Source of the DNA: an uncultured Anaerolineales bacterium
GTDB lineage: Bacteria > Chloroflexota > Anaerolineae > Anaerolineales > UBA11858
DNA length: 64,000 bases
Assembly: GCA_964406305.1 (NCBI GenBank)
Contig: CAYORF010000004.1
Span: 2,237 to 66,236, forward strand
Reading direction: 5' to 3'
This document shows, in pieces, positions 3,939 to 20,578 of this stretch (positions within the stretch are counted from its first letter, which is position 1; every line of letters begins with the position of its first letter). The notes below the pieces were generated by a model that was given only the letters and a program-made list of their open reading frames with translations, did no database searches and was not told the DNA's origin. The position numbers and the translations under genes are program-made.

Positions 3939-4790
3939 TTAGTTAAGGGGGGTTCCCTGTTTTAAGACCAGGTTGCCGACAGGAATATCGAGCAGGTCAC
4001 TCAGAACGGGGCATTTGGTTCGCAGCAGGAAAAACACTTTGTCTCCCTGTTCGTCCATGGTTTCATAATTTGCCTGTCCTTTGGAGAGAACCAAGGGCGA
4101 TTCCAAAAAAAGCTTCTGGAAATCCGGTGTGGATTGGGATAGGACAGTTCCGGGAGCCCATGACCCTGTTTCCACCACTTCGGCTACCTGATCTATCCCG
4201 GCCGCCACTGCATACTCAAGGGTTGCATCATTGAGAACCGGTCCACTTTTGACAACATATTTTACAGGTATATCCAGGGTCTCGATAAAGACCCTATCAA
4301 AGATCGTTTCACCTACATTATCTGCAAGATATAACAGGTGCGGGGCGCCATTCAATTCCTTCCGGAAAGCTTCCAGCCCTCCACCTTGGAGTTCCTGGCT
4401 GACCGTCTTCTCCACTTCTTCCCACAGATCATAATCGACGGCATGAACGATATCGATTATATTGCCAGCGGCGCTGACCTTCAGTCCCCGCTCCAGGCGA
4501 TCCTGCCCTTTTAAGATCAATTCCCGCAGGTCATCCTGGTAGTTGAGAGCATGTTGATGGCTGGCATCTTTTTCATCTTTATAAAGGTCGATCACTCCCA
4601 GGGAATCTCTGATCACCCGGTTTGTTTCGCCAGCGATTTCAGAAGGACTGAGTTTGGCGTCCATCTGGGCTAGTTTTCTTATCACTTTTTGAATAGTTTG
4701 GATTTGAATAGACTCGTCGTCTTCATTCAATAAGACAGCGTTGACAGTCTGCCTGACAATGCAATCATAACATTTTGGATAGGTTTTCAT
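3939..4790 (-). CDS. DUF89/ARMT1-like damage-control phosphatase
   Basis: N-terminal CYDC, AAGNIID, LADNVGETIFD, PVLND, SKGQANYETM, KC near the C-terminus. Confidence 0.85.
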   Translation of the reverse strand: MKTYPKCYDCIVRQTVNAVLLNEDDESIQIQTIQKVIRKLAQMDAKLSPSEIAGETNRVIRDSLGVIDLYKDEKDASHQHALNYQDDLRELILKGQDRLERGLKVSAAGNIIDIVHAVDYDLWEEVEKTVSQELQGGGLEAFRKELNGAPHLLYLADNVGETIFDRVFIETLDIPVKYVVKSGPVLNDATLEYAVAAGIDQVAEVVETGSWAPGTVLSQSTPDFQKLFLESPLVLSKGQANYETMDEQGDKVFFLLRTKCPVLSDLLDIPVGNLVLKQGTPLN

Positions 4791-4797
4791 GATTAAT

Positions 4798-6525
4798 TTA
4801 CCCCCTGTTCACTTCCGGAACAGCTTCCTGCACGTATTTCCGGATCTCCTGATCACCCTTCAGGTTTATCGCAGTCTCCGCGACTTGGCGAGCGTGTTCC
4901 ATCGATATGGAACGGATAAGCCTTTTGGCAAAAGGAACGGCGGGAGGGTTCATACTGAACTCGTCCAACCCTAAACCTAACAGGATCGGGATTGCCAATA
5001 ATTCACCTGCCATTTCCCCGCATAATCCTACCCATTTGCCCTTGGCATGAGCAGCGTCGATTACCATTTTAATCAACCTGAAAACTGCGGGTTGGAACCC
5101 GGAAGCCATGGGAGCTACCTGAGCATTGGTGCGATCTGCTGCAAGGGTATATTGACCGAGGTCATTTGTGCCGATTGAGAAGAAATCAACCACTTCTGCC
5201 AGCTGATCCGCCAGGATCGCTGCAGATGGGATCTCGATCATGATCCCGATTTCCATTTCTTCTGCAACATCATGGCCTTCATCTCTCAGTTCCTGTTTAC
5301 ACTCCTCCAGAACTTCCCGGACTTGCACTACATCCTCAACAGTAGCCACCATAGGGAACATTAATTTCAGATTATTCCCATAACCTGCTCTCAGCGCTGC
5401 TCTCAGTTGAGGTTTAAATATGTCCGGTCGAGATAAACACAGTCGTATAGCCCTTACTCCGAGGAAAGGATTGGCTTCTGGCGGCAAATCAATATATGGA
5501 ATATCTTTATCTCCGCCCACATCGAGTGACCTTAATATGACAGGACGATCGCCAAAGGCGTCTCCGATTGTTTTATAACTTTCGTATTGTTCTTCCTCGG
5601 TAGGGAGACTGGATCGTTCAAGATAAAGAAACTCAGAACGGAGCAAACCAACTCCTTCAGCGCCTGAGAGCAATGCGGGTTGAACATCATCTACGCTACC
5701 AATATTGGCAACTACTTCCACCTGATGTCCATCGGTAGTAATCGCTGGTTGATGACTGATCGCTTCCGCATCCGCTTGAGCTATAAGGAATTTTTCCTGG
5801 CGGTTCCTGAATTGTTTAAGAGATTTTTTATCCGCATCGATGATGATCTCACCAGCATCGCCATCAACAACGAGTTTGTCACCGGTTTTGATCTTCCTCA
5901 ATGGTTCGCCGGCACCCACCACTGCCGGGATCCCTAATCCTCTAGCCAGAATGGCTGTATGGGAAGTTGAACCTCCAACTTCAGTACAGAAACCCAGAAC
6001 ATAATCCTTGTTTAGTAAGACAGTATCCGAGGGTGTCAGGTCCTGGGCTGTGATGATCGAAGGAATCTTTAATCCATCTGCTGGAGAATCCTTCAACCCA
6101 AGCAAATTCCTCAGGAGACGGGAAGATACATCTCGAATATCCAGTGCTCGGGCGCTGAGATATTCGTCATCAATTGCTTCCAATTGTAAGGCGAAAGATT
6201 CTGCGGTTTCATACAGGGCGGTTTCAACGTTGATCAGTTCTGAATTTACTCGTGACTTAACCGTGTTGATCAGCTCCGGATCTTGAAGCATTAATTTCTG
6301 GGCCCCGAATATTCCTGCCTCTTCTTCCCCACATTCCTCCTGGGCTTTTAAATATGCTACATCCAGTTGCTTAGTGGTCTCTTCCTGGGCTTGAACGAAT
6401 CGTTTCCATTCTTCTTCTGGATCTTGAATATTACAAGATTCTATTACAATCTCGGCCCTGGTAAAAACAAACGCAGGGCCAATCGCAATACCATAAGAAG
6501 CTGGAATTCCAGAAATCGACTTCAT
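4798..6525 (-). CDS. ptsI: Phosphoenolpyruvate-protein phosphotransferase (PTS enzyme I)
   Basis: GGSTSHTAILAR (phospho-His), EGVGLLRSEF, DVGGDK, EANPFLGVRAIR, FFSIGTNDL, GLCGEMAG. Start moved to the ATG at 6525, directly after the HPr stop. Confidence 0.95.
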   Translation of the reverse strand: MKSISGIPASYGIAIGPAFVFTRAEIVIESCNIQDPEEEWKRFVQAQEETTKQLDVAYLKAQEECGEEEAGIFGAQKLMLQDPELINTVKSRVNSELINVETALYETAESFALQLEAIDDEYLSARALDIRDVSSRLLRNLLGLKDSPADGLKIPSIITAQDLTPSDTVLLNKDYVLGFCTEVGGSTSHTAILARGLGIPAVVGAGEPLRKIKTGDKLVVDGDAGEIIIDADKKSLKQFRNRQEKFLIAQADAEAISHQPAITTDGHQVEVVANIGSVDDVQPALLSGAEGVGLLRSEFLYLERSSLPTEEEQYESYKTIGDAFGDRPVILRSLDVGGDKDIPYIDLPPEANPFLGVRAIRLCLSRPDIFKPQLRAALRAGYGNNLKLMFPMVATVEDVVQVREVLEECKQELRDEGHDVAEEMEIGIMIEIPSAAILADQLAEVVDFFSIGTNDLGQYTLAADRTNAQVAPMASGFQPAVFRLIKMVIDAAHAKGKWVGLCGEMAGELLAIPILLGLGLDEFSMNPPAVPFAKRLIRSISMEHARQVAETAINLKGDQEIRKYVQEAVPEVNRG

Positions 6526-6526
6526 A

Positions 6527-6793
6527 TCAGTGTTCACCAAAGTTATCAAGCACTAGCTCTTCAAGAGCTTTTAGCGCTTCATCTGCATCTTCACCCTCTG
6601 CTTTTACTACGATCTCCGCGTCTTTATGGGCGCCAAGTGTTAACACAGCCAGGATGCTTTTAGCATTTGCTATTGTTTCTCCATGAGTGACTTCAATATC
6701 ACTGGAAAACTTAGCAGCGGTTTGAACAAAGGCCGACGCTGGGCGGGCGTGAAGGCCAACCTCATGGGTTATAGTTAATTTGATTTCCGGCAT
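6527..6793 (-). CDS. ptsH: Phosphocarrier protein HPr
   Basis: GLHARPA (His15) and NAKSILAVLTLG (Ser46 motif). Confidence 0.95.
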   Translation of the reverse strand: MPEIKLTITHEVGLHARPASAFVQTAAKFSSDIEVTHGETIANAKSILAVLTLGAHKDAEIVVKAEGEDADEALKALEELVLDNFGEH

Positions 6794-6805
6794 ATTATCT
6801 CCTAG

Positions 6806-8119
6806 TTAATAGTTCATTAGGATTGGATTCTCAAAAGTTGTTTTCAGGTCCGCGATGAAACGGGCCGCAACGGCGCCGTCTATAATACGATGGTCGGCCG
6901 ATAATGTAAAGCGCATAATGGGCCTTACCGCAATGGTCCCTTCATCCAAGGCAATAACTTCCTGGGTTGTAGCACCAATGGCCAGGATCCCTGCTTCGGG
7001 TGGATTGATAATCGCATTGAACTGTTCCACACCAAAAGGACCCAGGTTGGTGATCGTAAAGGTACCACCCCTGACATCTGCGCCTACGAGTGTTTCTTCT
7101 TTGGCACGTTTCACAAGATCGGTGGTTTCAAGGGCTATTTTACTGATCCCTTTCTGGTTGGCATTCTTCACTACCGGCACGATCAGCCCTTCTTCGAGGG
7201 CGACAGCTACGCCAATATTGATGTCCCGGTGCAGGATGATGGAATCCTCGACCAGGGAGCTGTTGATCATAGGGTGGTCTGCGATCACCATGGCAACAAG
7301 CTTGACTAACATCGCGGTAACAGAAATCTTTTCATCACCTCGCTCTAAAGCCAGATCATTATAATCCTTCCGGGCTTTGACAAAGTTTGTCATATCAACC
7401 CGGGCTGTAAACTGGATGTGCGGTATGGATTGATAGCTGGCAGTCAGTCTTTCAGCAATAGTGCGCCGCATACCTATGAGAGGTATGCTTTCCCCGCTTT
7501 GAACAGGGCTGGCAGCCGGGAGGCTGATACCGGGTCGGAAACTTTCCACGTCACTGGCCTGGATCCTTCCCCCAGGACCACTTCCTTGGACAAGGCTCAA
7601 ATTCACGCCACTAATACGGGCAATTCTCCGGGCAGCTGGTGTGGCAATTACCTGACCTCCACCAACCGCGGCCGGTGGGGTGATGGCGGATTGAACATCA
7701 TCCTTAGTAACTTTTCCTCCTGTACCAGACGGAACCACTTTGGATAGATCTACACCATGAACCTCTGCCATTTTTTTGGCTACTGGTGTGGCCGGAACAT
7801 CTCCTGCCGGTGCTGCGGTCGCCTGCTTGACCTCAGCTTCAGGTACAGGGGTCACCGCTTTCGCAACTGGTACTTCCTCGCCCTCCTCGAGAATATATGC
7901 AATCACAGTACCGATCGGGATCACATCACCAGGATAGGCTGAGATACCATTCAGGATACCCGTTCCGGGCGCTTCCACATCCATGGCAATCTTATCTGTT
8001 TCAATAACCAGAATTGTTTCGCCTTCTTTTACTTGTTGCCCATCAGTTTTAGTCCATTCTACGACTGTTCCAGTTTCCTGGTCCATGTCCACTTTGGGCA
8101 TGATCATTTCAATGGCCAT
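6806..8119 (-). CDS. 2-oxoacid/acetoin dehydrogenase E2 (dihydrolipoamide acyltransferase)
   Basis: One lipoyl domain (ETDKIAMDV), two peripheral-subunit-binding repeats (ATPVAKKMA..., ATPAARRIA...), catalytic DHRIIDGA. Confidence 0.92.
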   Translation of the reverse strand: MAIEMIMPKVDMDQETGTVVEWTKTDGQQVKEGETILVIETDKIAMDVEAPGTGILNGISAYPGDVIPIGTVIAYILEEGEEVPVAKAVTPVPEAEVKQATAAPAGDVPATPVAKKMAEVHGVDLSKVVPSGTGGKVTKDDVQSAITPPAAVGGGQVIATPAARRIARISGVNLSLVQGSGPGGRIQASDVESFRPGISLPAASPVQSGESIPLIGMRRTIAERLTASYQSIPHIQFTARVDMTNFVKARKDYNDLALERGDEKISVTAMLVKLVAMVIADHPMINSSLVEDSIILHRDINIGVAVALEEGLIVPVVKNANQKGISKIALETTDLVKRAKEETLVGADVRGGTFTITNLGPFGVEQFNAIINPPEAGILAIGATTQEVIALDEGTIAVRPIMRFTLSADHRIIDGAVAARFIADLKTTFENPILMNY

Positions 8120-8120
8120 A

Positions 8121-9107
8121 TTACACCTTTAAGGTTGCCAGTTCCCTGGCTTTCTCAACAATATCCGCAATTTGCGGAACTGCTGCTTGTTCCAGATCAC
8201 GGTTATATGGAATCGGGACTTCCTTGCCCGCCAGGCGGATAATAGGTGCTTCAAGGTATCCAAACGCTTCGCTTTCCGCTATCACGCCAGCCAGTTCGCC
8301 ACCAAAACCTCCGGTTTTGACTGCTTCATGAACAATCAATACTTTGCCGGTCTTTTTTACTGAACCGACTATGGTCTCGGTGTCCAACGGGCGCAGGGTC
8401 CGGGGATCAACTATTTCGATATCAATCCCTTCTTTAGCCAGCTCTTCAGCCGCGGCAAGGGATTTCTGGACCATGATACCAGTGGCAATGATCGTCAGGT
8501 CTTTGCCTGCCCGCTTGATATCGGCTTTTCCAAGAGGAATCTCGTACAGCTCTTCAGGCACTTCGCCCTTGGTCTTATAGAGCAATTTGTGCTCAATAAA
8601 AACGACCGGGTTATCATCCCTGATCGATGAAACCAGCAAGCCTTTGACATCATACGGGGATGTTGGCATGACAACTTTTAATCCTGGCACATGCACAAAC
8701 CAGTTTTCAAAACTCTGGGAGTGATGTTCTGCTGCACCCGTTCCGGAACCCGCTGCGGTTCGTAAAACCATCGGTACAGTAGATTGTCCACCGAACATAA
8801 ATCTCAGTTTGGCTGCCTGGTTAACTAGCTGTTCAGAAGCCAGGGTTGTAAAATCCATAAACATGATCTCTGCGATCGGCCGCATGCCAATTAAAGCAGC
8901 TCCGACAGCAGCACCAGTTAATCCCAATTCAGTGATGGGTGTATCGAGAATGCGATCATGTCCGAATTTTTCGAGCATACCATAGGTAACCTGGAAGGCT
9001 CCCCCGTATTCTCCAATGTCCTCTCCAATAAGAAATACCCGGGAATCTCGTTCCATTTCCTGGGTCATTGCTTCACGTACAGCTTCTAAGTAAGTAATCT
9101 CTCTCAT
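8121..9107 (-). CDS. TPP-dependent dehydrogenase E1 beta subunit (AcoB/PdhB-like)
   Basis: [45 protein letters not shown]. Confidence 0.92.
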
Positions 9108-10069
9108 GGTGCGTAAACCCCTTCTTCCAAAGTTTCAACTCTCGGATCTGGACTTGCTTCTGCAAAGACCCGGGCGGCTTCGATATCGGCATATCCATGC
9201 TCTTTGATCTTCTCGATTTCTTTTTCTGAGAGGATTTTTTCACTGACACAGTATTTCCCAAACTTGAGAATGGGGTCTTTCTTTTTCCATTCTTCGATTT
9301 CTTCCTTTGTTCGGTAGCGATTCCGGTCACTCTTCGAGTGACCCCGCCAGCGATAGGTATCATTCACTATCAGGGACGGTCCCCCGCCTTCGCGGGCTAA
9401 TTTGACTGCCTCTTCGACAGCGGATTGAACCTCAAGAAGATCATTTCCATCTGTTGAACAACTTCCGGCCATGCCATAGATCTCTCCATGGGCAGCGATC
9501 TTCTTGCTGGTTGTCCAATCACTTGCAGAAAACGACATTGCATACTGATTATTTTCACAAATAAAAACCACCGGAACCTGGTAAAGCACCGCCAGGATCA
9601 TTGATTCGTGGAAAGCGCCTGTGGAAGCTGCCCCGTCTCCAAAAAAGGCCAACAGGACTTGATTCTCACCCTTCATCTTCAAACCGATCCCAATTCCAAC
9701 TGCCATCGGGATGCCTCCCCCAACCACACCGTTAGCACCGAGGTTCCCTCCAGCTATATCGGCAATATGCATCGAACCGCCTCTTCCGCGGCAGTATCCA
9801 TTTTCTTTACCATAAAATTCGGCCATCATTAAATTTAAATCAGCGCCCTTAGCGATACACAGACCATGTCCGCGGTGGTGACCAATAATAAAATCTGTTG
9901 ATTCCAGCGTACTGATGGAGCCAACTGCGGATGCTTCCTGTCCAATAGATAGGTGCATCGTTCCGTGAATCTTGCCCGCCATATAACTTTTTTCTGCCTG
10001 TTCTTCAAAAGCGCGTATTTGATACATTTGCAGCAAATACTGTTCTGCATTTTCCTTCGCTAATTTCAT
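9104..10069 (-). CDS. TPP-dependent dehydrogenase E1 alpha subunit (AcoA/PdhA-like)
   Basis: [23 protein letters not shown] motif GDGA...[15 protein letters not shown]. Confidence 0.92.
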
Positions 10070-10075: not shown

Positions 10076-10741
10076 TTACCTCCCCAACTTTATTGAATTT
10101 ATTTTTTCTCGGAATTTTCGAGCTGTGGCTGCGGGATCGGATGATTCCCTGATAGCCCTTCCAATAATGAAAACTGTAATATCCAATCCTTCAAAGAAGG
10201 AAATCATATCCAGCCTAATTCCACCCGCTACAGATATCTTAAAACCCATACCGATCAAATGCTGGATAGTTTCCCAATCATTTTTAACCCAGGATCGGGA
10301 TAGGTTTCCTTCATCCCAACCGCGGTGGTAAACCATGCGCTCTACTCCAATCTCCCGCCATTCCTGGGCCCGGGCAATGATATCCCGGATGCCGGTCAGC
10401 TCGATAAACATTTCTTTCCCGGGTCGGGAATTGGCTTCCTCCAGGGCAAGTTTGATGGTATCCAGTGGGGCAGCGCCCAGCACAGTCATCCAATCCGCGC
10501 CGGCGTCAAAAGCCATTTTTGCCTCACCTCTACCGACATCGGGGGATTTGATATCTGCCAGGATCAACTTATCAGGGCATAGTTCCCGGACAATCTTAAC
10601 AGATAACATACCCGCAGACTTGGATAGCGGTGTACCAATTTCTATAATATCAACTTCTTCTCGGACGATCTGAACCATAGCCAAGGCCGGAGCGAGATCA
10701 AAATAGTCCAAAGCCAGTTGAATTAACGGTTGTTTTGTCAT
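10076..10741 (-). CDS. UlaD/SgbH or hexulose-6-phosphate synthase family (OMPDC suprafamily) enzyme
   Basis: QLALD, IEIGT, LADIKSPD, IELTG, YHRGWD, VAGG, IGRAI. Start refined to the ATG at 10741 (GGAG RBS). Confidence 0.85.
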   Translation of the reverse strand: MTKQPLIQLALDYFDLAPALAMVQIVREEVDIIEIGTPLSKSAGMLSVKIVRELCPDKLILADIKSPDVGRGEAKMAFDAGADWMTVLGAAPLDTIKLALEEANSRPGKEMFIELTGIRDIIARAQEWREIGVERMVYHRGWDEGNLSRSWVKNDWETIQHLIGMGFKISVAGGIRLDMISFFEGLDITVFIIGRAIRESSDPAATARKFREKINSIKLGR

Positions 10742-10748
10742 TAAATTA

Positions 10749-11646: not shown

Positions 11647-11681
11647 AATCACATATGTGATTTGTTTTCTCACATATGTGA
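11647..11681. promoter_or_regulatory. Tandem palindromic operator, copy 1
   Basis: TCACATATGTGA at 11649-11660 (within the perfect 16-bp palindrome AATCACATATGTGATT) and again at 11670-11681; starts are 21 bp apart. Confidence 0.85.
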
Positions 11682-11844: not shown

Positions 11845-12342
11845 CTATTCCTTCTTTTTTTTATCCTTTGCGGCCTGCTTTTCCTTGCGTTGATCCATTT
11901 CGCGCTGGAGCATTTCTCGGTTGCTGGGCATCATGCGCTGGATCTTGGCGCCCTGTAGGGCTTTAAGCGCTTTATCTGCCAGATCTTTTTCATTAAATAA
12001 TAGCTGTAAATTTTCAATTGTCTTTCTTTTAGGGCTCAGTGCCCCAATCCTGGCAATGTAAGGGAAAGGCGAAACTTCAATGGCCTTGTCCCAGGGAATG
12101 CCAATGATCTTTCGGATCTTCTTGTTGGATTTCTTTCTGTTCAGGTCATCGGACAGATGGGCTGATTTAGCCATTTCAACAATAAGGAATCTATAAATGC
12201 GAAGGAGATTATTCCAACAAAGGAACATGAACAACCCATACACCAGAATAATCGAATTGATGATCAGTTCATTTGCTTGATAAAAATATAAAATCGCTCG
12301 TCCAGCATCCCCCATTAGTGCTTCTAAAAATGGTCCTACCAT
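11845..12342 (-). CDS. Hypothetical membrane-anchored protein, Lys-rich C-terminus (165 aa)
   Basis: AGGAGGAG RBS before the ATG at 12342; one hydrophobic segment (LIINSIILVYGLFMFLCW). No family recognised. Confidence 0.7.
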   Translation of the reverse strand: MVGPFLEALMGDAGRAILYFYQANELIINSIILVYGLFMFLCWNNLLRIYRFLIVEMAKSAHLSDDLNRKKSNKKIRKIIGIPWDKAIEVSPFPYIARIGALSPKRKTIENLQLLFNEKDLADKALKALQGAKIQRMMPSNREMLQREMDQRKEKQAAKDKKKKE

Positions 12343-12361
12343 GCGAAATCTCCTCCTGATA

Positions 12362-12435: not shown

Positions 12436-13830
12436 TTACTCGCCTTTTGCGCCAGCAAGTTTGTCCCAGGCAGTTTCGTTCTTCTTGTATAAGTAGAAAA
12501 GCACGCCGGTGAGGACGGCAAATAGACCAATGCCGATCCAGCCAGTGTATTTACCAAGGAGCATGAAAACCAGCGGTGACCACACAAATCCGTCTGCAAT
12601 GCTGGAGATCATAACAGCATTACCGGGGATTGCAAATCCAGCGCCACCAGCAACCTCGGTGATAACCGGGGCCAATGCGTTGGCGAAGTAGAAACCGAAG
12701 ATCAAAAGGATGGTTCCCACAAAGACCATGCGGACAACGTTGCCCTTGGCCATAGGAGCGATCTGGGAGCACAGGAAAGGCAGTACAGCTAGGTCAGCAA
12801 AGAGCAGCATGCGGTTGCCAGGCAAGATGATGGACAGCAGAATGGCGATGGGGACCAACAGCAAGCCGGTGGAAATCGCGGAAGGATGTCCAACCAGAAC
12901 TGCGGAGTCCAGACCAATGTAAACTTCGCGGCCGGAAGCTCGTTTGGCCATGAAGGTGCGGGCGGCTTCGGAGACCGGGATCAAACCTTCCATAAGGATG
13001 CGGACCATGCGGGGCAGCAAAACCATCACTGCGGCCAGGTTTACACCCAGAAGAATTATTTTTCCAAGGGTCGGCACAAAGGCACCGGCAAATTCACCAG
13101 TGTAAGCGATCAGACCAAGCACCACACCGATAACCAGACCCATAACCATCGGATCACCAAAGGTGGAGCCGAGAGCTTTTTCGATTCCATCGGGGTCCGC
13201 GTCAACTTTGTTAAGGCCGGGGATCTTGTCGAACAGCCAGTTGAAAGGAAGCGCCAGGGGAACCATAGGAGCAGTCATACCATGAGGAATGGAGATGCCA
13301 GGCAGGTCATAGAATTCCTGAATACCTTTGGCAGTCCAGTCGCCCAGGAAGAGCATAAAAGCGGCTGCAACAGCAGCTGCGGCCATACCCATAATCACGT
13401 TTCCGGAAACGGCAGCTACCAGGGAACCGATCAGGGCATAGTGCCAGAAGTTCCACAGGTCAACATTGAGGGTCTTGGTGACGCCCGTGAATAACAGGGC
13501 GAAGTTTACAACCAAACCGATGGGAATGACCCACAGGCCGACGTCGGTAGCAAAGGCTACCGCGGCAGCGGCAGGCCAACCCACGTCAACGATGTCGCGG
13601 GAAATACCAGCATTGGTGACCATAGCTTGGGATACCTCAGCGAGGGCGCCCCACATCAGGCCAATAACGAGGTTAATACCGATGAAAGCCACACCGATGG
13701 TCACTGCAGCGCGGAAGGCCCGTCCAACTTTTGCGCCAAGGATCACGGCGAAAAGGAAGATGAACACTGGCAGCAATACCGTGGAGCCCAGGGTATCAAC
13801 AACAGATTTTAATACGGTTGCGAAATCCAT
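12436..13830 (-). CDS. gatC: PTS IIC component, galactitol (GatC) family
   Basis: Polytopic membrane protein with DVGWP, LNVDLWNFWH, LLPRMV..LMEGLIPVSE, IGLDSAVLVG, PGNRMLLFADLA. Substrate not established. Confidence 0.9.
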   Translation of the reverse strand: MDFATVLKSVVDTLGSTVLLPVFIFLFAVILGAKVGRAFRAAVTIGVAFIGINLVIGLMWGALAEVSQAMVTNAGISRDIVDVGWPAAAAVAFATDVGLWVIPIGLVVNFALLFTGVTKTLNVDLWNFWHYALIGSLVAAVSGNVIMGMAAAAVAAAFMLFLGDWTAKGIQEFYDLPGISIPHGMTAPMVPLALPFNWLFDKIPGLNKVDADPDGIEKALGSTFGDPMVMGLVIGVVLGLIAYTGEFAGAFVPTLGKIILLGVNLAAVMVLLPRMVRILMEGLIPVSEAARTFMAKRASGREVYIGLDSAVLVGHPSAISTGLLLVPIAILLSIILPGNRMLLFADLAVLPFLCSQIAPMAKGNVVRMVFVGTILLIFGFYFANALAPVITEVAGGAGFAIPGNAVMISSIADGFVWSPLVFMLLGKYTGWIGIGLFAVLTGVLFYLYKKNETAWDKLAGAKGE

Positions 13831-14152
13831 AACTTTTCCTCCATATAATACTTGGGTTTCCTACTTAATAAGGAACTATTGCTCGATCCTGCAACTGGTA
13901 TGAGAGCTATCACCTCCTCAGTCTTGATGAGAACATCCTGTTTTATTTTATAAATTTTGTTACTTGGCAAGAATCCTGCCTCTGAATTTTGCAGCCAGCG
14001 GCTGGATCTCTTGCTATTGTCCAGGAAAATCTCAGACTATTTGGATATTAGGTCCTATCACACAAATTCTTCCAGAGAAAGATGTCTCTCGCTGGAATCT
14101 GTCAGGGCATTATTGTAGTGCCAGTAAAAACACCAAAAGAAGAATTTAGTTA

Positions 14153-14437
14153 CTAATCTTTCAAGATATCAAGGATCTCTTTCACAACATCATCAATACC
14201 TAATCCCGTTAAAAAGGCCAACCCTTTCACTACAGGGATACCGGGGTCAAAACGCATGGTCGAGGTAGTGACAATCAAATCAGCTCCTTGTTTAAGGAGC
14301 TCGGGGATCTCCTGGCCTTTGCACTGCTTGGTAATCACAGCAACTCCTGCCGCTTTACAAGCCTCTTCAATTGCCTTGGCTGCCACTGTAGAGGTAGCTA
14401 TCCCGGTTCCACATGAAACGATTACTGTTTTTGCCAT
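14153..14437 (-). CDS. PTS IIB component, Gat/Lac family
   Basis: VSCGTGIATST phospho-Cys loop; GLAFLTG. Confidence 0.9.
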   Translation of the reverse strand: MAKTVIVSCGTGIATSTVAAKAIEEACKAAGVAVITKQCKGQEIPELLKQGADLIVTTSTMRFDPGIPVVKGLAFLTGLGIDDVVKEILDILKD

Positions 14438-14463: not shown

Positions 14464-14925
14464 TTACGACAGAGCAGAAAATACTTCTTCTGTTGTTTTT
14501 GCATTGACCAACTTCCTGATAGTGTCAGGATTTTGGAGAACAGCCGCCACGCTTTGCAGCATCTCAATTTGTGATTTTGGTGTATCTAAAGCCAACATAA
14601 TCACTAGTCTGCAGGGTACTACTTCATCGCTATCAACCATATTATAAAACACAACATCTTCTTTAAATGTTGCTAAGCCCAGAGCTGATTGATTTACATA
14701 TTCAATATCCACGTGTGGTATAGCCGCATTATACTCTCCCCCCAACGGTAAACCGGTCGGCATATTAGCCTCTCGCTCAAGGGCTGCCTCAATAAAATTG
14801 TCTTTCACATAACCCAGGTCACGTAGTTTTCCCCCCAGGGCGCGAATCACTTCTTCCGAGCTAGTAGTCTCTAATCCTAGCAACACAGCTCTTTCATTCA
14901 AAAATTCTTTTATGTTCATTTTCAA
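14464..14925 (-). CDS. PTS IIA component (PTS_EIIA_2, GatA-like)
   Basis: REANMPTGL, AIPHVD (phospho-His), VVFYNM. Confidence 0.9.
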   Translation of the reverse strand: MKMNIKEFLNERAVLLGLETTSSEEVIRALGGKLRDLGYVKDNFIEAALEREANMPTGLPLGGEYNAAIPHVDIEYVNQSALGLATFKEDVVFYNMVDSDEVVPCRLVIMLALDTPKSQIEMLQSVAAVLQNPDTIRKLVNAKTTEEVFSALS

Positions 14926-14959: not shown

Positions 14960-14992
14960 TTACATATGTGAGCCCGTTGTTCACATATGTGA
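14960..14992. promoter_or_regulatory. Tandem palindromic operator, copy 2
   Basis: TTACATATGTGA at 14960-14971 and TCACATATGTGA at 14981-14992; same 21-bp spacing as copy 1. Confidence 0.85.
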
Positions 14993-15075: not shown

Positions 15076-16044
15076 ATGGCCAATAATACCGAGCGGGATG
15101 AGATTCTGGCTTTTGTGGCAGAAAAATATTATCTTGAAGACCACAAACAAACCGATATTGCGGAAATGATCGGACTCACCCGCTCTGCAATCTCCCGCAT
15201 GTTAACAGAAGCACGCGAAAAAGGGATAGTCGAGATCGTTGTCCACTATCCATTCCAGTACAACCAGGAGTTGGAGAATAAACTAAATAGAAATTTCGGA
15301 CTTAAGCATGTTGCGGTTGTTGAGTTCAGCAGACAACCGAACTATGACGATCTCAGAAAGCAGCTTGGAATTGCAGCCTCCAAGTTATTGTCCAATATCA
15401 TTGAACCCGGATACCAAATAGGTATCGCCTGGGGAACCACGGTCCAGGCCACAATCGAAGCTTTTGAATCCAGTCCTATTCCAGACACGAAAGTTGTCCA
15501 GTTGGTTGGTGTTTTAGGCTCAACCCGTCACGCTTACAGCGCTCAAACCCTGGTAGAAAGACTGGCCCACAAGATCAGCGCTGAAGGTAAGTACCTTTAC
15601 TCTCCATTTATTGTTGAAAGTGAAGAAACAGCTTCCTCTCTATTAAAAGACCCGTCTGTGATGCAGGCCATCTCCAATGCTAAAGAATGTGATATCGCAT
15701 TGATGGGTATTGGTACAACCAAACCAAAATACTGCAGTCTTTATAAAGGAGATCACATCAGCCTCGCTGAGTTGGAAAAGATCCAATCAGCCAACGCGGT
15801 AGGTGATGTGTGCGCCCTCTATTTTGAGCTTAATGGGGCCTTGGCCCAGGTAGATTTTCATCAGCGGAGAATTGGCACATCGGTTGAAGCTTTGCGTGCG
15901 ATTGATATCCGCCTTGGCGTAGCCGGAGATATTAATAAGTCCGAGGCTATCTTGGGAGCGATCCGGGGCGGGTTTATCAATTCGTTGGTCACGGACAACC
16001 TAACAGCTCTCCGGATCCTGGAACTGGATCAGGACCAACAATAA
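15076..16044 (+). CDS. SorC/DeoR-family sugar-binding transcriptional regulator
   Basis: N-terminal HTH (YYLEDHKQTDIAEMIGLTRSAISRMLTEAREKGIVEI) plus sugar-binding domain (IGIAWGTT, LMGIG, AVGDVC, LVTD). Confidence 0.92.
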   Translation: MANNTERDEILAFVAEKYYLEDHKQTDIAEMIGLTRSAISRMLTEAREKGIVEIVVHYPFQYNQELENKLNRNFGLKHVAVVEFSRQPNYDDLRKQLGIAASKLLSNIIEPGYQIGIAWGTTVQATIEAFESSPIPDTKVVQLVGVLGSTRHAYSAQTLVERLAHKISAEGKYLYSPFIVESEETASSLLKDPSVMQAISNAKECDIALMGIGTTKPKYCSLYKGDHISLAELEKIQSANAVGDVCALYFELNGALAQVDFHQRRIGTSVEALRAIDIRLGVAGDINKSEAILGAIRGGFINSLVTDNLTALRILELDQDQQ

Positions 16045-16067: not shown

Positions 16068-16883
16068 ATGAAACTACAAAAATTTACGACCATCCTTCTG
16101 GATGGTGATGGCGTGCTGTGGAAATCAAATCAACCCATACCGGGGATAAAGCCTTTTTTTGATCTACTAAATGACCTTGGTGTCCGCTGGGCTCTCCTGA
16201 CTAACAACAATACCCGCACCGCTCAGGATTATATAGATAAATTGGAAAATTTTGGGATCCCGGCAAGTCCTTCCTCTGTTTTTACCAGTTCTACAGTGAC
16301 CGCTGATTATTTACTGGAGAAATACGGCAAAGATGCCGTCCTCCATGTGGTTGGAATGGATGGATTAACCCGAACCTTAAAAGATGCTGGTTTCCAATTC
16401 ACCACAGGGGAAGAGATACCCGAGAATAACGTAACAGCCGTGGTAGCAGGTATGGACCGGGAGATCAATCTCCAGAAAATCACTATTGCCATGAGGTTGA
16501 TCATGGGTGGCGCAGACTTCATAGCTACCAATACGGATGGTTCCTTCCCCACTCCGGATGGTATCAACCCTGGAACCGGGACCGTGATTGGCGCACTGCA
16601 GTTCGCCTCTGGAACAGAACCTTATGTCGTTGGGAAACCACAACCAGCCATCTTCCAAACAGCCTTGAAGGTGCTTGGATCGAAGATCGAAAATACACTT
16701 ATGGTAGGTGATCGGTTAAATACGGACATCCTTGGAGCCAACAAGGTGGGAATTCAAACCGCAGCAGTGCTAACGGGCGTGACATCCAGGGACGAAATTA
16801 ACCAGAGTGAAATTAAACCTGATTTCATCTTTGAGGACATCAGCAGCCTGCACCTGGCTCTTGAAGAGGTCTATGGATCATGA
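16068..16883 (+). CDS. HAD-IIA hydrolase (NagD-like)
   Basis: LDGDGVLW, LTNN, ATNTD, VGKPQ, MVGDRLNTDI. Confidence 0.9.
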   Translation: MKLQKFTTILLDGDGVLWKSNQPIPGIKPFFDLLNDLGVRWALLTNNNTRTAQDYIDKLENFGIPASPSSVFTSSTVTADYLLEKYGKDAVLHVVGMDGLTRTLKDAGFQFTTGEEIPENNVTAVVAGMDREINLQKITIAMRLIMGGADFIATNTDGSFPTPDGINPGTGTVIGALQFASGTEPYVVGKPQPAIFQTALKVLGSKIENTLMVGDRLNTDILGANKVGIQTAAVLTGVTSRDEINQSEIKPDFIFEDISSLHLALEEVYGS

Positions 16884-17701
16884 AGCCATTAATCTTGTTG
16901 ACTAATGATGATGGGATACATTCGCCAGGATTGGCGGCAGCCGCCCAGGCGCTTGATCCTCTGGGAGAACTGCTGATAGTCGCACCTGTCGAACAGCAAA
17001 CATCCATGTCCAGAAGCAGATCCCAACAATACGGCGTGGATGGAACAATTGAAAAAACCACCGTTCATTATGGGGATCAAAGCTGGGCAGGATACGGCGT
17101 TAAAGCAACACCAGCCCTTGCGGTCGTCCACGCAGTCGGAGAAATTGCAGATCGAGAGATATCATTGGCGATATCAGGTATTAATTATGGTGAAAATGTC
17201 GGAACCTGCGTAACTGTTTCGGGAACCATTGGAGCCGCTCTCGAGGCGGCAGAAAAGGGGATTCCAGCTCTGGCAGTCTCACAAGAAATCACCGGCATTG
17301 ACTACCATACATACAGCAAAGAAGTTGATTTTTCAACAGCGATATATTTCACTCGGAATATCGCACAAGTGATGTTAAACAATGAATTGCCGCTCGATGC
17401 TGATGTTCTTAAATTAGAAATCCCTCTTGGCGCTACAACAGATACTGAAATGGTGATCACCAGGCAAGATCGCCTGGTCTACTATCAATCAACACCGATA
17501 AAACGGGAAAAGCTGTTAGGAACAAAAGCTGCTGTATCTCATCTGCCAAGCAAGGGAAAATTTTCAAGAAAAGACACCGATGCTTACGCCCTGGCAGAAG
17601 GATTAGTATCCATTACGCCGCTCAGCCTGGATCTGACATCGCGTAACTGCCTGGATAAAATTGCTGGGGTCTTTGATTCAAAATTATTAGACGAGGAATA
17701 A
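16880..17701 (+). CDS. surE: SurE-family 5'/3'-nucleotidase
   Basis: LLTNDDGIHSPG, SGINYGENVG, SGTIGAALEA, SITPL. Confidence 0.9.
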   Translation: MKPLILLTNDDGIHSPGLAAAAQALDPLGELLIVAPVEQQTSMSRSRSQQYGVDGTIEKTTVHYGDQSWAGYGVKATPALAVVHAVGEIADREISLAISGINYGENVGTCVTVSGTIGAALEAAEKGIPALAVSQEITGIDYHTYSKEVDFSTAIYFTRNIAQVMLNNELPLDADVLKLEIPLGATTDTEMVITRQDRLVYYQSTPIKREKLLGTKAAVSHLPSKGKFSRKDTDAYALAEGLVSITPLSLDLTSRNCLDKIAGVFDSKLLDEE

Positions 17702-17706
17702 AAATA

Positions 17707-18132
17707 ATGACAGGAACGATCCACAAATTTACAGGAGATTGGGAAAAGTCCTTCCAATGGGAAGGCACCAGGACTAGGCTTTATAAAAAAGAACCCGATA
17801 ATCGTGTTTCAGAAACCTGGATGATCGGCAAAAAAGAAGGTGCGGAAAACTTTGCGTTTCGGTATTATCAAATCGAGGCAGGCGGTCATTCTAACAAAGA
17901 ACAGCATCCCTATGATCATGGGATCTTGGTCCTTCAAGGTTCCGGCAAAGTGCTTTTAGGAGAAGAAATTCACAATATATCCAGGGGAGACATCATTCAC
18001 ATCCCCCCCGATGCGCTGCACCAGATTTCCAATTCCAGGCAAGAGCCACTGGGGTTCTTATGCGTTATCCCTGCCCGACGACAAAAAGAAGGTGGTATCG
18101 TTTGGGCTGAAGAAGGCATTCATTTTGACTAG
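17707..18132 (+). CDS. Cupin domain protein
   Basis: QHPYDHGILVLQGSG and IHIPPDALHQ cupin motifs. Confidence 0.85.
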   Translation: MTGTIHKFTGDWEKSFQWEGTRTRLYKKEPDNRVSETWMIGKKEGAENFAFRYYQIEAGGHSNKEQHPYDHGILVLQGSGKVLLGEEIHNISRGDIIHIPPDALHQISNSRQEPLGFLCVIPARRQKEGGIVWAEEGIHFD

Positions 18133-18162
18133 AACAGAATCATATAATTATTGGAGGTTGTT

Positions 18163-19155
18163 ATGACAGAACGTATGAAATGGGGTGTTCTGGGAACAGG
18201 CAAGATCACCTCGCGGTTTGCCCAAGCATTAAACAACATACCAGAACACGCTGAGCTCCTCGCAGTTGGATCAAGGAATCAGGAGACTGCTGACGCTTTT
18301 GGCGACAAATTCAAAATCCCCAGGCGTTATACAAGTTATGAGGATGTAGCCAAGGATCCTGATATCGATATCATATATATCGGCACGCCTGGTGTTTTCC
18401 ATCTGAGAGACGCCAGCCTGGCGCTTAATCACGGCAAACATGTACTATGTGAAAAAGCATTTACAATCAATGCCAAAGAAGCCCAGGAAATGGTTGATCT
18501 GGCCCGCGCAAAGAACTTATTTCTAATGGAAGCCATGTGGACCCGGTTCTTCCCGATCCACGTGAGAATCCGGGAATTGCTGGCAGAAAAAGTTCTTGGA
18601 AAGGTAAACGGGGTAACCATTAACTTTCTCGCAACAGCTCCCTTTGATCTAGAAAATCGCTTCTTTGACATTAACCTGGGCGCCAGTGTTTTGCTTGATA
18701 CTGCTGCTTATGGTGTATCCTGGTCCTCCAGCCTTTTCGGTGAACCAGAAGCTGTCACCGGCCTGGCGACAATTGGGGAAAGCGGCGCAGATTACCAGGT
18801 TGCCCTGGCGCTGAGATATAAAGAGGGTCAGCTGGCCAGTTTGCTATCCTCCCAAGTCTCCTATGATGACAAAGATGCCGTCCTGTTTGGCGAAAAGGGT
18901 AAAATCGTGGTCCATTCGCCTTGGTATAAACCAGTAGCCATGACCTTACACACCCAGGACAAAGAGCCTGAGTTGATCTCTATGCCTCTGGATGGCTACA
19001 ACGGCTATGAATACGAAGCCATGGAAGTGATGAATTGCATTAAGGCCGGTAAAACCGAGTCCGAGATCATGCCGCTAGATGAAACCCTCAGCATCATGAA
19101 GACCCTCGATACTTTCCGGGAACAATGGGGACATAAATTCCCCTTTGAGGATTAA
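18163..19155 (+). CDS. Gfo/Idh/MocA-family oxidoreductase
   Basis: WGVLGTGKI, GKHVLCEKAF, LMEAMWTRFFP. Start refined to the ATG at 18163 (GGAGG RBS). Confidence 0.9.
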   Translation: MTERMKWGVLGTGKITSRFAQALNNIPEHAELLAVGSRNQETADAFGDKFKIPRRYTSYEDVAKDPDIDIIYIGTPGVFHLRDASLALNHGKHVLCEKAFTINAKEAQEMVDLARAKNLFLMEAMWTRFFPIHVRIRELLAEKVLGKVNGVTINFLATAPFDLENRFFDINLGASVLLDTAAYGVSWSSSLFGEPEAVTGLATIGESGADYQVALALRYKEGQLASLLSSQVSYDDKDAVLFGEKGKIVVHSPWYKPVAMTLHTQDKEPELISMPLDGYNGYEYEAMEVMNCIKAGKTESEIMPLDETLSIMKTLDTFREQWGHKFPFED

Positions 19156-19183
19156 GTCAATCCTGAAATACAAAAGGTGAGCT

Positions 19184-20578
19184 ATGAGTAAATTTGATGT
19201 GATCGTAATTGGAGCGGGTCCAGCAGGATATGTATCAGCCATTCGAGCGGCTCAGCTTGGAAAACAGGTAGCTGTAATTGAAAAGGAATACCTGGGTGGG
19301 GTTTGTTTGAACGTTGGCTGTATCCCTTCCAAGAGTCTGCTAAAAAATGCTGACCTGGCATTTACGCTTACCAACCAGGCAAAAGATTTTGGAATCTCTT
19401 TTGATAACCTGAAATTGGATTATGCGGCTGCAGTGAAACGAAGCCGCCGGGTTTCAAAACGACTGATAAAGGGTGTTGAATTCTTACTGAAGAAGAATAA
19501 GATCACCCTTTATACTGGAAACGCGGAATTTGCCTCCCCTGATACTATTAATGTGATTGGAGCAGATGGAGAAGTGAAAATTACCGCGCCGAATATCATC
19601 ATAGCCACCGGCGCCCGGCCATTTATCATTCCCGGGATAGAAGTGGATGGCAAACAAGTGGTGACCTACAAGGAAGCCATCCTCCAAGAAAACCTGCCGA
19701 AGTCCGCTGTGATAGTGGGCGCTGGCGCAATTGGGATGGAATTTGCCACCATCTGGAACAGCTACGGCGTTCCTGTTACTGTCGTAGAAATGATGGACCG
19801 GATCACACCCAACGAAGACCCGGAAGTCAGCGACACACTAGAAAAAGCCATCAACAAACATGGCATTAAAACCCTCACAAAGACCAAAGTCACCAAGGTT
19901 GAAAAACTAAAAACCAAGTTGAATGTGACTGTTGAGGGTCCTGAGGGAAAAGAGAAGATCTCCACTGACCAGGTCCTTCTGGCAGCCAGTTTTGTTCCCA
20001 ATACTGACAGCCTGGGGCTGGAAAAAACCGGTGTCAATCTGGATAAGCACGGGTTCGTCGAAATTGACGACCGGATGGCGACCAATGTTCCTGGGATCTG
20101 GGCTATAGGTGACGTCACCGGAAAGCTAATGCTGGCTCACGCCGGTATGGCTATGGGTATAGTTTGCGCAGAAGTCATTGCTGGAGGATCTCCGGAAAAA
20201 CTAAACTTCCAGAACATGCCCAAAGCGACCTACTGCCATCCCCAGGTTGCATCCTTCGGGCTCACCGAAGAAGCTGCCAAAGCCGCTGGCTACGATGTTG
20301 CAGTTGGAAAATTTAACTTCCAGGCCAATGGAAAAGCCCTGGGGTTGAATGATTACGCAGGCTGGGTCAAGATTGTCACCGATAAAAAATTCGGGGAGAT
20401 CCTGGGGGCTCATATGATCGGCCCAGAAGTGACCGAGCTACTTCCAGAACTGACCCTGGCTCAGGCTAACGAGCTCACATCAGTTGAGATCGGGCATAAT
20501 ATCCACGCTCATCCAACATTAAGCGAGGTGCTGCACGAAGCCGCTAAAGACGTGACCGGAGAGGCTATTCACGCATAA
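19184..20578 (+). CDS. lpdA: Dihydrolipoyl dehydrogenase (E3)
   Basis: GAGPAGY, GGVCLNVGCIPSK redox disulfide, AIGDV, HAHPTLSE. Confidence 0.95.
   Translation: MSKFDVIVIGAGPAGYVSAIRAAQLGKQVAVIEKEYLGGVCLNVGCIPSKSLLKNADLAFTLTNQAKDFGISFDNLKLDYAAAVKRSRRVSKRLIKGVEFLLKKNKITLYTGNAEFASPDTINVIGADGEVKITAPNIIIATGARPFIIPGIEVDGKQVVTYKEAILQENLPKSAVIVGAGAIGMEFATIWNSYGVPVTVVEMMDRITPNEDPEVSDTLEKAINKHGIKTLTKTKVTKVEKLKTKLNVTVEGPEGKEKISTDQVLLAASFVPNTDSLGLEKTGVNLDKHGFVEIDDRMATNVPGIWAIGDVTGKLMLAHAGMAMGIVCAEVIAGGSPEKLNFQNMPKATYCHPQVASFGLTEEAAKAAGYDVAVGKFNFQANGKALGLNDYAGWVKIVTDKKFGEILGAHMIGPEVTELLPELTLAQANELTSVEIGHNIHAHPTLSEVLHEAAKDVTGEAIHA

Follow-up and report, generated by a model that had tools for sequence, protein, structure and literature searches.

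A 64,000-nt stretch of DNA from an uncultured Anaerolineales bacterium (contig CAYORF010000004.1 of assembly GCA_964406305.1, positions 2,237 to 66,236), referred to here as the window, contains at positions 3939 to 20578 a regulon in which a full sugar phosphotransferase system (PTS), comprising GatABC with its own HPr and enzyme I (EI), is joined to an acetoin-dehydrogenase-type E1α/β-E2-E3 complex. The E1α subunit belongs by sequence to a mostly Chloroflexota clade that is distinct from canonical pyruvate dehydrogenase (PDH), and the genes surrounding this clade tentatively point to a phosphorylated 1-deoxy-sugar as its substrate. Gene calls were made with Pfam and NCBIfam profiles against curated cutoffs, and PDB matches were used for the nearest solved relatives. 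The 18 genes described in an earlier note, which was made by reading the letters of the sequence, were all confirmed, and are listed here together with the regulatory features between them (scores in bits).

3939-4790, minus strand: DUF89/ARMT1-like metal-dependent phosphatase, final gene of the ulaE-E1 operon (PF01937, 168)
4798-6549, minus strand: PTS EI, ptsI (TIGR01417, 629, cutoff 342)
6527-6793, minus strand: HPr phosphocarrier (PF00381, 103; TIGR01003, 96)
6806-8119, minus strand: E2 dihydrolipoyl acyltransferase (PF00364, PF02817 twice, PF00198)
8121-9107, minus strand: E1β (PF02779, 152; PF02780, 141; subfamily model NF006667, 412, cutoff 321)
9104-10069, minus strand: E1α, binding thiamine pyrophosphate (TPP) (PF00676, 255; TIGR03182, 336, cutoff 394)
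10076-10765, minus strand: UlaD-like enzyme of the orotidine monophosphate decarboxylase (OMPDC) suprafamily, between 3-keto-L-gulonate-6-phosphate decarboxylase (KGPDC) and 3-hexulose-6-phosphate synthase (HPS), below the cutoffs of both
10749-11636, minus strand: UlaE-like TIM barrel of the pentulose-5-phosphate 3-epimerase family (NF009689, 283, cutoff 200; PDB 3CQH, UlaE, 226)
11670-11681 and 11649-11660, minus strand: operator pair TCACATATGTGA on the ulaE side, just downstream of the ulaE promoter
11712-11684, minus strand: ulaE promoter, TTGACA-17-TATAAT, a 12/12 sigma-70 match
11845-12384, minus strand: orf179, a predicted membrane protein without a Pfam or NCBIfam match
12406-12374, minus strand: terminator-like hairpin 3' of gatC, a 15-bp stem followed by a T-run
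12436-13830, minus strand: GatC, PTS enzyme IIC (EIIC) of the Gat family (PF03611, 272; TIGR00827, 427, cutoff 542)
14153-14437, minus strand: GatB, PTS EIIB (PF02302; NF007643, 71, cutoff 95)
14464-14925, minus strand: GatA, PTS EIIA type 2 (PF00359, 108)
14981-14992 (exact) and 14960-14971 (1 mismatch), minus strand: operator pair on the gatA side, downstream of the gatA promoter
15022-14994, minus strand: gatA promoter, divergent from sorC
15076-16044, plus strand: SorC/DeoR(Bs)/LsrR-family regulator, a presumed repressor (PF04198, 220)
16068-16883, plus strand: HAD-IIA sugar-phosphate phosphatase (PF13344, PF13242; TIGR01460, 148, cutoff 100)
16880-17701, plus strand: SurE-family phosphatase (TIGR00087, 149, cutoff 135)
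17707-18132, plus strand: cupin, probably of the 1-methylthio-xylulose-5-phosphate (MTXu-5-P) methylsulfurylase family (nearest PDB entries 3IBM, 3KGZ, 3JZV)
18151-19155, plus strand: Gfo/Idh/MocA NAD(P) oxidoreductase (PF01408, PF22725; PDB dimeric dihydrodiol dehydrogenase, 168)
19184-20578, plus strand: E3 dihydrolipoyl dehydrogenase (TIGR01350, 561, cutoff 409)

The sequence shows a single regulon, presumably under SorC control, that has TCACATATGTGA operators in pairs at both the gatA and the ulaE promoter. This palindrome is present in four copies in the 64 kb (one with a mismatch), compared with 0.14 expected by chance, and no copy lies elsewhere in the window. About 40 related loci, some of them lacking UlaD and UlaE, have the same motif upstream of ulaE, E1α, SorC or UlaD, and SorC is presumed to be the repressor that binds it. 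Several claims of the earlier note hold: the genes from ulaE to DUF89 are tightly packed (gaps of 12 nt or less, or overlaps), the Gat PTS is under the same operator, and E3 is the last gene of the divergent SorC operon. The note's statement that the cluster lacks a UlaF-type epimerase and a transketolase extends to the whole window, in which no gene was found for a class II aldolase/epimerase, transketolase, PanB, bacterial microcompartment (BMC) shell protein, 6-phospho-3-hexuloisomerase (PHI), DXP (1-deoxy-D-xylulose 5-phosphate) reductoisomerase-like protein (DRL), MtnK, MtnA or RuBisCO-like protein (RLP). Because of the strong hairpin and T-run after gatC, gatABC probably form their own transcript under the same control. 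The HAD-IIA phosphatase remains with SorC even in minimal loci (L002, L006), and DUF89 also lies downstream of EI in L007, L084, L088, L093, L096, L098 and L103. The true start of the UlaD-like protein is likely the ATG at 10741. The annotated TTG start of orf179 overlaps the gatC terminator hairpin, so its real start is probably an ATG about 42 nt downstream; orf179 is conserved and in relatives invariably comes after gatC, with homologues at this place in L004, L007, L084 and many metagenome loci, so it may be a PTS accessory.

The E1 subunits have the features of the heterotetrameric 2-oxoacid/acetoin dehydrogenase E1 component, namely an E1_dh domain with the GDG...NN TPP motif (FFGDGAAS...ICENNQYAM in the E1α translation) and Transket_pyr and Transketolase_C domains. 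E2 contains a lipoyl domain (ETDKIAMDVE), two E3-binding stretches and a catalytic domain (SADHRIIDGA), and E3, well above its cutoff (561 against 409), has GGVCLNVGCIPSK as its redox CxxxxC motif. Named subfamily models give a divided picture. E1α falls below both PDH equivalog cutoffs (336 against 394 for TIGR03182, 235 against 411 for TIGR03181) and E2 below every named E2 equivalog cutoff (e.g. 85 against 307 for the AcoC model), while E1β passes the NCBIfam PDH E1-β subfamily model. The closest solved relative of E1α is human PDH E1α (PDHA1, 197 bits), and both catalytic His positions are retained.

The active site of E1α is nonetheless unlike that of canonical PDH. Among 80 species-level loci collected by E1α similarity, the canonical loci have the loop GHSMSDPxKYR, whereas the window and all relatives of at least 47% identity have GHS[KR]SD[RK][NQ]xYR. 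Alignment to human PDHA1 and a clade-contrast analysis placed further clade-specific residues, with F61 replaced by Thr (T37 in the window), Y89 by His (H65), a second conserved Phe by Ala, G201 by Ser, M265 by Lys (K246) and P268 by Arg (R249). The window E1α has neither the GHSMSDP loop nor the F61/Y89-type residues of the canonical site. In human E1p, loop 259-282 is a wall of the substrate channel. The loss of two bulky aromatics (F61 to Thr, the second Phe to Ala) and the gain of basic residues in the channel loop suggest a larger, anionic substrate. The motif-bearing sequences form a core neighbour-joining (NJ) clade of 26/31 with moderate bootstrap support (91/200). The best 120 E1α relatives are 75-97% identical to the window protein, and the named ones are Anaerolineales or Chloroflexota metagenome-assembled genomes. 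As E1α lies below the PDH equivalog cutoffs and has clade-specific residues at active-site positions, the complex appears not to be a canonical PDH.

Gene neighbourhoods separate the two groups further. When 33 motif-bearing (clade) loci from the 80 were compared with 33 canonical PDH loci, neighbours of the clade genes were SorC in 16/33 cases and PTS genes in 8-9, with HPr in 8/33, EI in 7/33 and a Gat- or Gut-type EIIC in 8/33, each with 0/33 in the canonical loci; E3 is adjacent in 0/33 clade loci and in 6/33 canonical ones. At least one gene for an enzyme that forms or converts DXP is present beside 12 of the 33 clade loci and beside none of the 33 canonical loci, the types being DRL, the MTXu-5-P methylsulfurylase-type cupin, MtnK, MtnA and RLP. 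For example, L017 (8970-19314) and L022 contain a single operon SorC-E1abE2-GutM-sorbitol-type PTS-DRL homologue-HPr-EI, whose DRL homologue aligns with Brucella DRL from end to end (328 bits); such an operon would suit a methylerythritol-type polyol that is taken up and then converted via methylerythritol phosphate (MEP) and DXP. L030 (85-12148) has the order SorC-E1ab-E2-cupin-ABC transporter-MtnK-MtnA (MtnK 475 bits, cutoff 275; MtnA 430 bits, cutoff 279), L021 (7533-15973) includes MtnK (511 bits, cutoff 275), and L025 (5350-12001) has the order RLP-cupin-DhaK-DhaL-TIM barrel-E1ab. The occurrence of methylthioribose genes and of a Rhodospirillum rubrum-type RLP-cupin pair beside clade E1abE2 in these other Chloroflexota suggests a catabolic extension of the methylthioadenosine (MTA)-isoprenoid shunt. 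Three unrelated families (DRL, the RLP-cupin pair and MtnK/MtnA) recur beside the E1 clade, and DXP is what they have in common.

The cupin of the window is by sequence a probable member of the Rru_A2000 (MTXu-5-P methylsulfurylase-type) family. Its three best PDB matches are 3IBM, 3KGZ and 3JZV (62-74 bits), of which 3JZV is Rru_A2000 itself, and the family motifs RYFEV, ExHxHxH, HQ and LGFLC align, with Tyr for the middle His in the window protein. Its identity is 38% with the L030 cupin, encoded beside MtnK/MtnA, and 33% with the L025 cupin, encoded beside RLP. Rru_A2000 is a 1-methylthio-xylulose-5-P methylsulfurylase, which yields DXP in the MTA-isoprenoid shunt from a substrate produced by the RLP Rru_A1998 (PMC4334135, PMC5893883). 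The chemistry proposed below has precedents: formation of 1-deoxyketoses has been reported for both PDH and acetoin dehydrogenase (Yokota & Sasajima 1986, as cited in PMC3424233), and a mutant AceE is able to replace DXP synthase (PMC3424233).

Other clade loci carry different feeder genes. L012 and L018 combine E1abE2 and SorC with an FGGY kinase, RpiB and a GpsA-like dehydrogenase. The xylulokinase of E. coli is an FGGY-family enzyme. It phosphorylates 1-deoxy-xylulose, as cited in PMC3424233, so the FGGY-containing loci would follow the same DXP logic. L016 and L014 contain SorC, E1abE2, GatABC, HPr(-EI) and nothing else, and there the PTS product would have to be split directly into central metabolites.

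Taken together, the residue patterns and neighbourhoods lead us to propose, at somewhat below even likelihood, that DXP, or a near relative among the 1-deoxy-ketose phosphates, is what the complex splits into acetyl-CoA and glyceraldehyde-3-phosphate (GAP). It would then be no housekeeping PDH, having specialised for a phosphorylated α-hydroxy methyl ketone, with DXP or a close 1-deoxy-2-ketose phosphate as the likeliest substrate. DXP has the form CH3-CO-CHOH-R, i.e. acetoin with a phosphorylated tail. E1-bound TPP would attack C2, and the C2-C3 bond would be broken in the reverse of the DXP-synthase condensation. GAP would leave by retro-acyloin cleavage and the hydroxyethyl-TPP would be oxidised onto lipoyl-E2, giving acetyl-CoA and, via E3, NADH, an outcome like that of phosphoketolase but linked to CoA and NAD. 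In some relatives the substrate would be supplied by MtnK-MtnA-RLP-cupin from methylthioribose or 5-deoxyribose, in others by a sorbitol-type PTS and a DRL homologue from methylerythritol-type polyols, and in yet others by FGGY kinases or by no more than a Gat-type PTS. The window's feeder would consist of GatABC and the UlaD-like, UlaE-like, cupin and Gfo proteins, with the UlaD-like protein, whose Trp/Ala pocket would be hydrophobic, serving as a C1-lyase or decarboxylase that forms an enediolate.

The proposed reaction has parallels in several known systems. The acetoin dehydrogenase AcoA/AcoB/AcoC/AcoL of Pelobacter, Bacillus and Clostridium magnum likewise consists of a heterotetrameric TPP-dependent E1α/β, a lipoyl E2 and E3, and would share the retro-acyloin cleavage of CH3-CO-CHOH-R into acetyl-CoA and an aldehyde. 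A presumed Aco-type E1α from Floricoccus, of the streptococcal family (L069), also has the GHS[KR]SD loop. By contrast, the regulon described here lacks acoR and acoX, is under SorC control in a PTS/sugar-phosphate context, has extra basic loop residues and an E2 far below the AcoC cutoff, and the proposed R is a phosphorylated sugar tail, so that the aldehyde would be GAP, not acetaldehyde. DXP synthase, transketolase, phosphoketolase and apulose-4-phosphate transketolase act on the same C2-C3 bond of a 2-ketose phosphate with TPP and with GAP as partner, and the proposed net carbon outcome equals that of phosphoketolase plus phosphotransacetylase; unlike these enzymes, the window complex would oxidise the C2 unit onto lipoamide to give acetyl-CoA and NADH. 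The MTA-isoprenoid shunt of R. rubrum and R. palustris (MtnP/MtnA, DeepYkr RLP, cupin) appears to share its cupin family with the window, and clade E1 genes have RLP-cupin, MtnK or MtnA as neighbours in L025, L030 and L021. In the shunt, DXP is directed to isoprenoids, whereas E1/E2/E3 would make it the start of a carbon- and energy-yielding catabolism. The Lsr system for phospho-AI-2 (LsrR, LsrG and LsrF, yielding dihydroxyacetone phosphate and acetyl-CoA) resembles the proposed route in its SorC-family repressor, in a substrate that is a 1-deoxy-pentose phosphate by class, and in ending at acetyl-CoA and a triose phosphate. However, the window SorC scores 160 bits against an LsrR cutoff of 486, LsrK, LsrG, LsrF and LsrACDB are missing here, and the proposed cleavage would depend on TPP and lipoamide instead of being thiolytic.

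If DXP-type cleavage is correct, it would be a new activity in one of the best-studied enzyme families, and the DXP dehydrogenase complex would match DXP synthase and phosphoketolase as their oxidative counterpart, linked to CoA. Pentose and deoxy-pentose metabolism would gain a new NADH-conserving outlet to acetyl-CoA and GAP, and the complex would complete in Chloroflexota the catabolism of 5-thio- and 5-deoxy-pentoses derived from S-adenosylmethionine (SAM), of methylerythritol-type polyols and of a PTS substrate. This would show how the abundant, mostly uncultured Anaerolineales of sludge and sediment obtain their carbon from SAM by-products, methyl-branched polyols or related deoxy-sugars, and would offer metabolic engineers a CoA-linked alternative to phosphoketolase. 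Automatic annotation of this clade as pyruvate dehydrogenase would then call for caution. In the searchable literature we found no description of an oxidative complex cleaving DXP or ketose phosphates, of this regulon, or of the BMC type described below.

A number of points weigh against DXP as the substrate. The case for it is made from gene neighbourhoods and residue patterns, and the sequences with the KR motif are not strictly monophyletic in the NJ tree (26/31 in the core clade). Across its 64 kb, the window itself lacks RLP, MtnK, MtnA and DRL. Its cupin has Tyr in place of the middle His of HxHxH and matches Rru_A2000 at the family level only (62 bits). We cannot write a known reaction by which the UlaD-like and UlaE-like enzymes would arrive at a 1-deoxy-ketose phosphate; as a matter of speculation, the UlaD/UlaE/Gfo/cupin route could involve decarboxylation or deformylation of a 2-deoxy-3-keto-hexose-6-phosphate, or epimerisation of a 1-substituted pentulose-5-phosphate. 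Other substrates considered, likewise as speculation, were 2-deoxy-hexonates, apionate, AI-2/DPD, L-fucitol and sulfoquinovose. DXP is moreover an essential biosynthetic intermediate, so its degradation by such a complex would have to be tightly controlled. In relatives with shell genes, the gene immediately upstream of E1α is that of PanB, which acts on 2-oxoacids and so hints at a 2-oxoacid substrate. Finally, the E1abE2-HPr-EI core of L002 has no feeder genes at all, and formation of pyruvate from phosphoenolpyruvate (PEP) also explains this locus.

The last point belongs to the alternative that survives best, to which we give about half the likelihood of DXP cleavage: a divergent PDH is co-transcribed with general PTS proteins, and the pyruvate that the PTS generates from PEP is converted to acetyl-CoA. 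GatABC, UlaD, UlaE, Gfo, the cupin and the phosphatases would then form an accessory module like Ula or Sgb, in which an imported hexonate or hexitol is converted to a pentulose-5-phosphate for an epimerase encoded elsewhere. The variation among relatives agrees with such a division. L007 (Leptolinea) has the complete window arrangement, while L002, with an E1α 83% identical and the same flanks as the window, carries nothing more than SorC-HAD-E3 and, facing it across the operator pair, E1abE2-HPr-EI. The core with the same regulator and operator also persists without UlaD and UlaE in L006 and L016, so that the stable part is SorC-HAD-E3 plus E1abE2-HPr-EI, and EII and UlaD/E are variable (L002, L006, L016, L017). 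A class II aldolase/epimerase gene closes the operon in L084/L102 and is found in further cases (L008, L114, L136, L140), and in L136, where translations were read by eye, an apparently complete Sgb-like set (FGGY kinase, UlaD, UlaE, AraD-like) lies beside E1-UlaD. The passing score of E1β with the PDH subfamily model, PDHA1 as the nearest solved relative of E1α with both catalytic His kept, the shared Pfam architecture of the α2β2 E1, and a PanB gene beside E1α, which suits a 2-oxoacid substrate, are all in keeping with a PDH. The rest of the evidence speaks against it: E1α and E2 are under all PDH equivalog cutoffs, the F61/Y89/G201/M265/P268 positions differ systematically from those of the 33 canonical loci, and SorC, PTS and sugar genes are near 0/33 of the latter. 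The argument from PEP also fails for loci that have no HPr or EI and in which E1 adjoins UlaD, DRL, RLP-cupin, MtnK or MtnA (L009, L025, L030, L136, L154). On the loop motif and the context census, a housekeeping PDH was downgraded and kept as a rival.

The alternative that ranks next starts from the UlaD-like enzyme and its relatives. The protein scores 155 bits against E. coli KGPDC, and fails both the KGPDC models (NF009831, 191.5 against 294; NF009832, 203 against 250) and the HPS model (TIGR03128, 171 against 200). In the Gerlt-lab literature, the proton-relay residues of KGPDC are Glu112, His136, Arg139 and Thr169. Compared with 1KV8, the UlaD-like protein retains the Mg and Lys/Asp core together with E112 and H136, and has R139 replaced by W and T169 by A, both W139 and A169 being invariant in 21 relatives. 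Of the HPS signature Asp/Val/Ala at positions 112/139/169, it matches only Ala169, with Glu112 and Trp139 at the other two. A true KGPDC was rejected on the profile cutoffs and the missing Arg139/Thr169, and a true HPS on the TIGR03128 cutoff and the signature residues. As it misses the cutoffs and signature residues of both, the protein would be a third kind of enzyme in the KGPDC/HPS subgroup, with a more hydrophobic C1 pocket. Its partner, the UlaE-like protein, passes one L-ribulose-5-phosphate 3-epimerase subfamily model (NF009689) and falls short of NF009688 (284 against 317) and TIGR00542 (259 against 272). GatABC are Gat family members by sequence, and their scores with the galactitol models (GatC 427 against 542, GatB 71 against 95, GatA 73 against 139) do not allow galactitol to be assigned as the substrate.

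A metagenome scan with the UlaD-like protein returned 80 loci, and about half of the UlaD relatives are of a long form (354 aa) with a 135-aa C-terminal extension. In all 22 metagenome loci with enough flank, the long UlaD precedes a series of BMC-H, a CsoS1D-like BMC-T, a small protein (109-125 aa), BMC-P and BMC-H, and in all 12 with enough further flank PanB comes after the shell genes (TIGR00222, 283 bits, cutoff 207; about 20 extra C-terminal residues). The short UlaD has shell genes after it in 0/11 loci and E1α directly after it in 7/11. L103 (9103-13965) has flanks near-identical to those of the window (E1β 99%, HPr 98%, GatC 96%) and nevertheless carries the long UlaD, shell genes and PanB, which makes the window an allele without shell genes, at a locus that occurs with and without them. 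Further shell-bearing examples are L084 (9104-13976), L004 and many metagenome loci among L090-L166, including L166, which has an additional enolase-superfamily acid-sugar dehydratase. L001 (5799-9817) has shell genes without PanB, and a PHI (TIGR03127, 203 bits, cutoff 160) beside UlaE/UlaD. With their two BMC-H, BMC-T and BMC-P proteins and a UlaD whose extension is cargo-like, these operons resemble the PDU, EUT, SPU and BUF metabolosomes. They differ in that the shell-bearing loci contain no gene for an aldehyde dehydrogenase (AldDH) or phosphotransacylase (PTAC) and in that the candidate cargo is UlaD-like plus PanB; the window has no shell genes. A sugar-phosphate-utilisation (SPU) BMC was ruled out, there being no DeoC or AldDH gene. 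The text and supplements of the 2021 BMC catalog contain no locus type with PF00215, PF02548 or PF00676; the catalog lists, only as unassigned, a Chloroflexi BMC-T of similar length (206 aa), which may or may not come from the UlaD/PanB locus type.

From these alleles, the UlaD-like protein can be read as an HPS-type aldolase, capturing formaldehyde on a ketopentose-5-phosphate or releasing it, with PanB making or cleaving a 4-hydroxy-2-oxoacid with the same C1 unit. The 2-oxoacid that results (pyruvate, 2-oxoisovalerate or 4-hydroxy-2-oxobutanoate) would be oxidatively decarboxylated by E1/E2/E3, and the form lacking shell and PanB would be that of the window. Such a scheme accounts for the regular succession of long UlaD, shell genes and a PanB above its cutoff, for PHI in L001, for the HPS-like T169A and hydrophobic W139, for the missing AldDH and PTAC, and for the L166 dehydratase, which would yield a 4-hydroxy-2-oxoacid. 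We nevertheless consider it improbable, as the window and many relatives without PanB or shell keep UlaD directly upstream of E1, L001 has shell genes and no PanB, UlaD keeps the KGPDC Glu112 in place of the HPS Asp and scores below the HPS cutoff, and the associations of the E1 clade with cupin, DRL and MtnK/MtnA/RLP are left unexplained. DXP cleavage can also be combined with the compartment. The joint proposal, that the GHSKSD-clade E1/E2/E3 is a natural DXP dehydrogenase complex and that in sister alleles the preceding step, by UlaD-like and PanB, takes place in a new AldDH-less BMC, is doubtful on the genomic evidence; it would add a metabolosome type without aldehyde dehydrogenase, and within it the compartment would probably confine formaldehyde or another small aldehyde.

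Least likely of all, and by our estimate quite improbable, is the proposal of the earlier note that UlaD and UlaE produce L-xylulose-5-phosphate or L-ribulose-5-phosphate, which the complex would cleave to glycolyl-CoA and a triose phosphate in place of UlaF and transketolase: ulaE, ulaD and E1abE2 follow one another directly and share a transcript, UlaD and E1 stay neighbours in two gene orders, UlaE passes its epimerase subfamily model and the window has no UlaF-like gene, but UlaF-family genes do occur in the operons of relatives, 29/33 clade E1 loci have no UlaD/E, UlaD lacks two KGPDC signature residues, making formation of L-xylulose-5-phosphate uncertain, and an L-pentulose would release L-glyceraldehyde-3-phosphate, with nothing in the cluster to handle it or glycolyl-CoA. 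The note's argument that E1 must take the UlaD/UlaE product because UlaF is missing accordingly falls, since relatives carry a class II aldolase/epimerase and the E1 core also occurs without UlaD/E. Its reading of the complex as something other than a canonical PDH is supported by the scores, by the active site and by the clade's confinement to sugar and PTS contexts, and its broader idea of ketose-phosphate cleavage by a TPP/lipoamide complex gains from the DXP neighbours in the 1-deoxy case that it listed and loses in the case of glycolyl-CoA from L-pentulose-5-phosphate.

The linkage of UlaD to E1, conservation of which the note had wished to see checked, is real without being universal. 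Anaerolineales have the order UlaE-UlaD-...-E1abE2-HPr-EI-DUF89, a high-GC group (L123, L136, L137, L139, L153-L155) has E1abE2-UlaD-..., and a third group (L157, L159, L161, L166) has UlaD with no E1 within 10 kb, besides the E1 cores without UlaD/E already described. In the known ula and sgb pathways (UlaD-UlaE-UlaF and SgbH-SgbU-SgbE), UlaD- and UlaE-type genes are adjacent as they are here; the present regulon differs in lacking UlaF, UlaG and a UlaABC-type transporter, in having a Gat-family PTS, and in the fusion of these genes into an operon with E1/E2.

Within the regulon, the gatB-gatC spacer (13831-14152) comprises 322 untranslated nt without an Rfam match, is 129-335 nt long in relatives, and contains a few conserved patches, including a GAGGAGGTGAT...CAGTTGC stretch. 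An Rfam search of the window returned two unrelated tRNAs only, with no match in this spacer or in the promoter regions. A URO-D/MtaA-like protein, absent from the window, is often encoded between orf179 and ulaE in relatives (L084, 7798-8961; L085, L087, L096, L107, L120). L008 (2127-3281, 7930-8580) has such a protein plus a B12-binding corrinoid protein, the latter a hint that, in some variants, the chemistry may include methyl-thiol or methyl-ether transfer.

The flanks of the regulon contain further genes. For the protein encoded at 33372-34748, no exactly matching record turned up. Convergent with E3, a second Gfo/Idh/MocA oxidoreductase (20683-21855) scores 258 bits with a levoglucosan dehydrogenase model (cutoff 650), and homologues of about 34% identity flank the DRL-E1abE2 locus L009. 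Convergent with DUF89, positions 2538-3935 encode a β-CASP metallo-β-lactamase RNase (405 bits with the type VII Cas14 model, cutoff 800; 293 bits with aCPSF1), for which no CRISPR context was seen and which is kept as a neighbour in L002, L084, L088, L093 and L096. Unrelated to the regulon, a bacterial α-2-macroglobulin-like protein of 1954 aa is encoded at 51937-57801.

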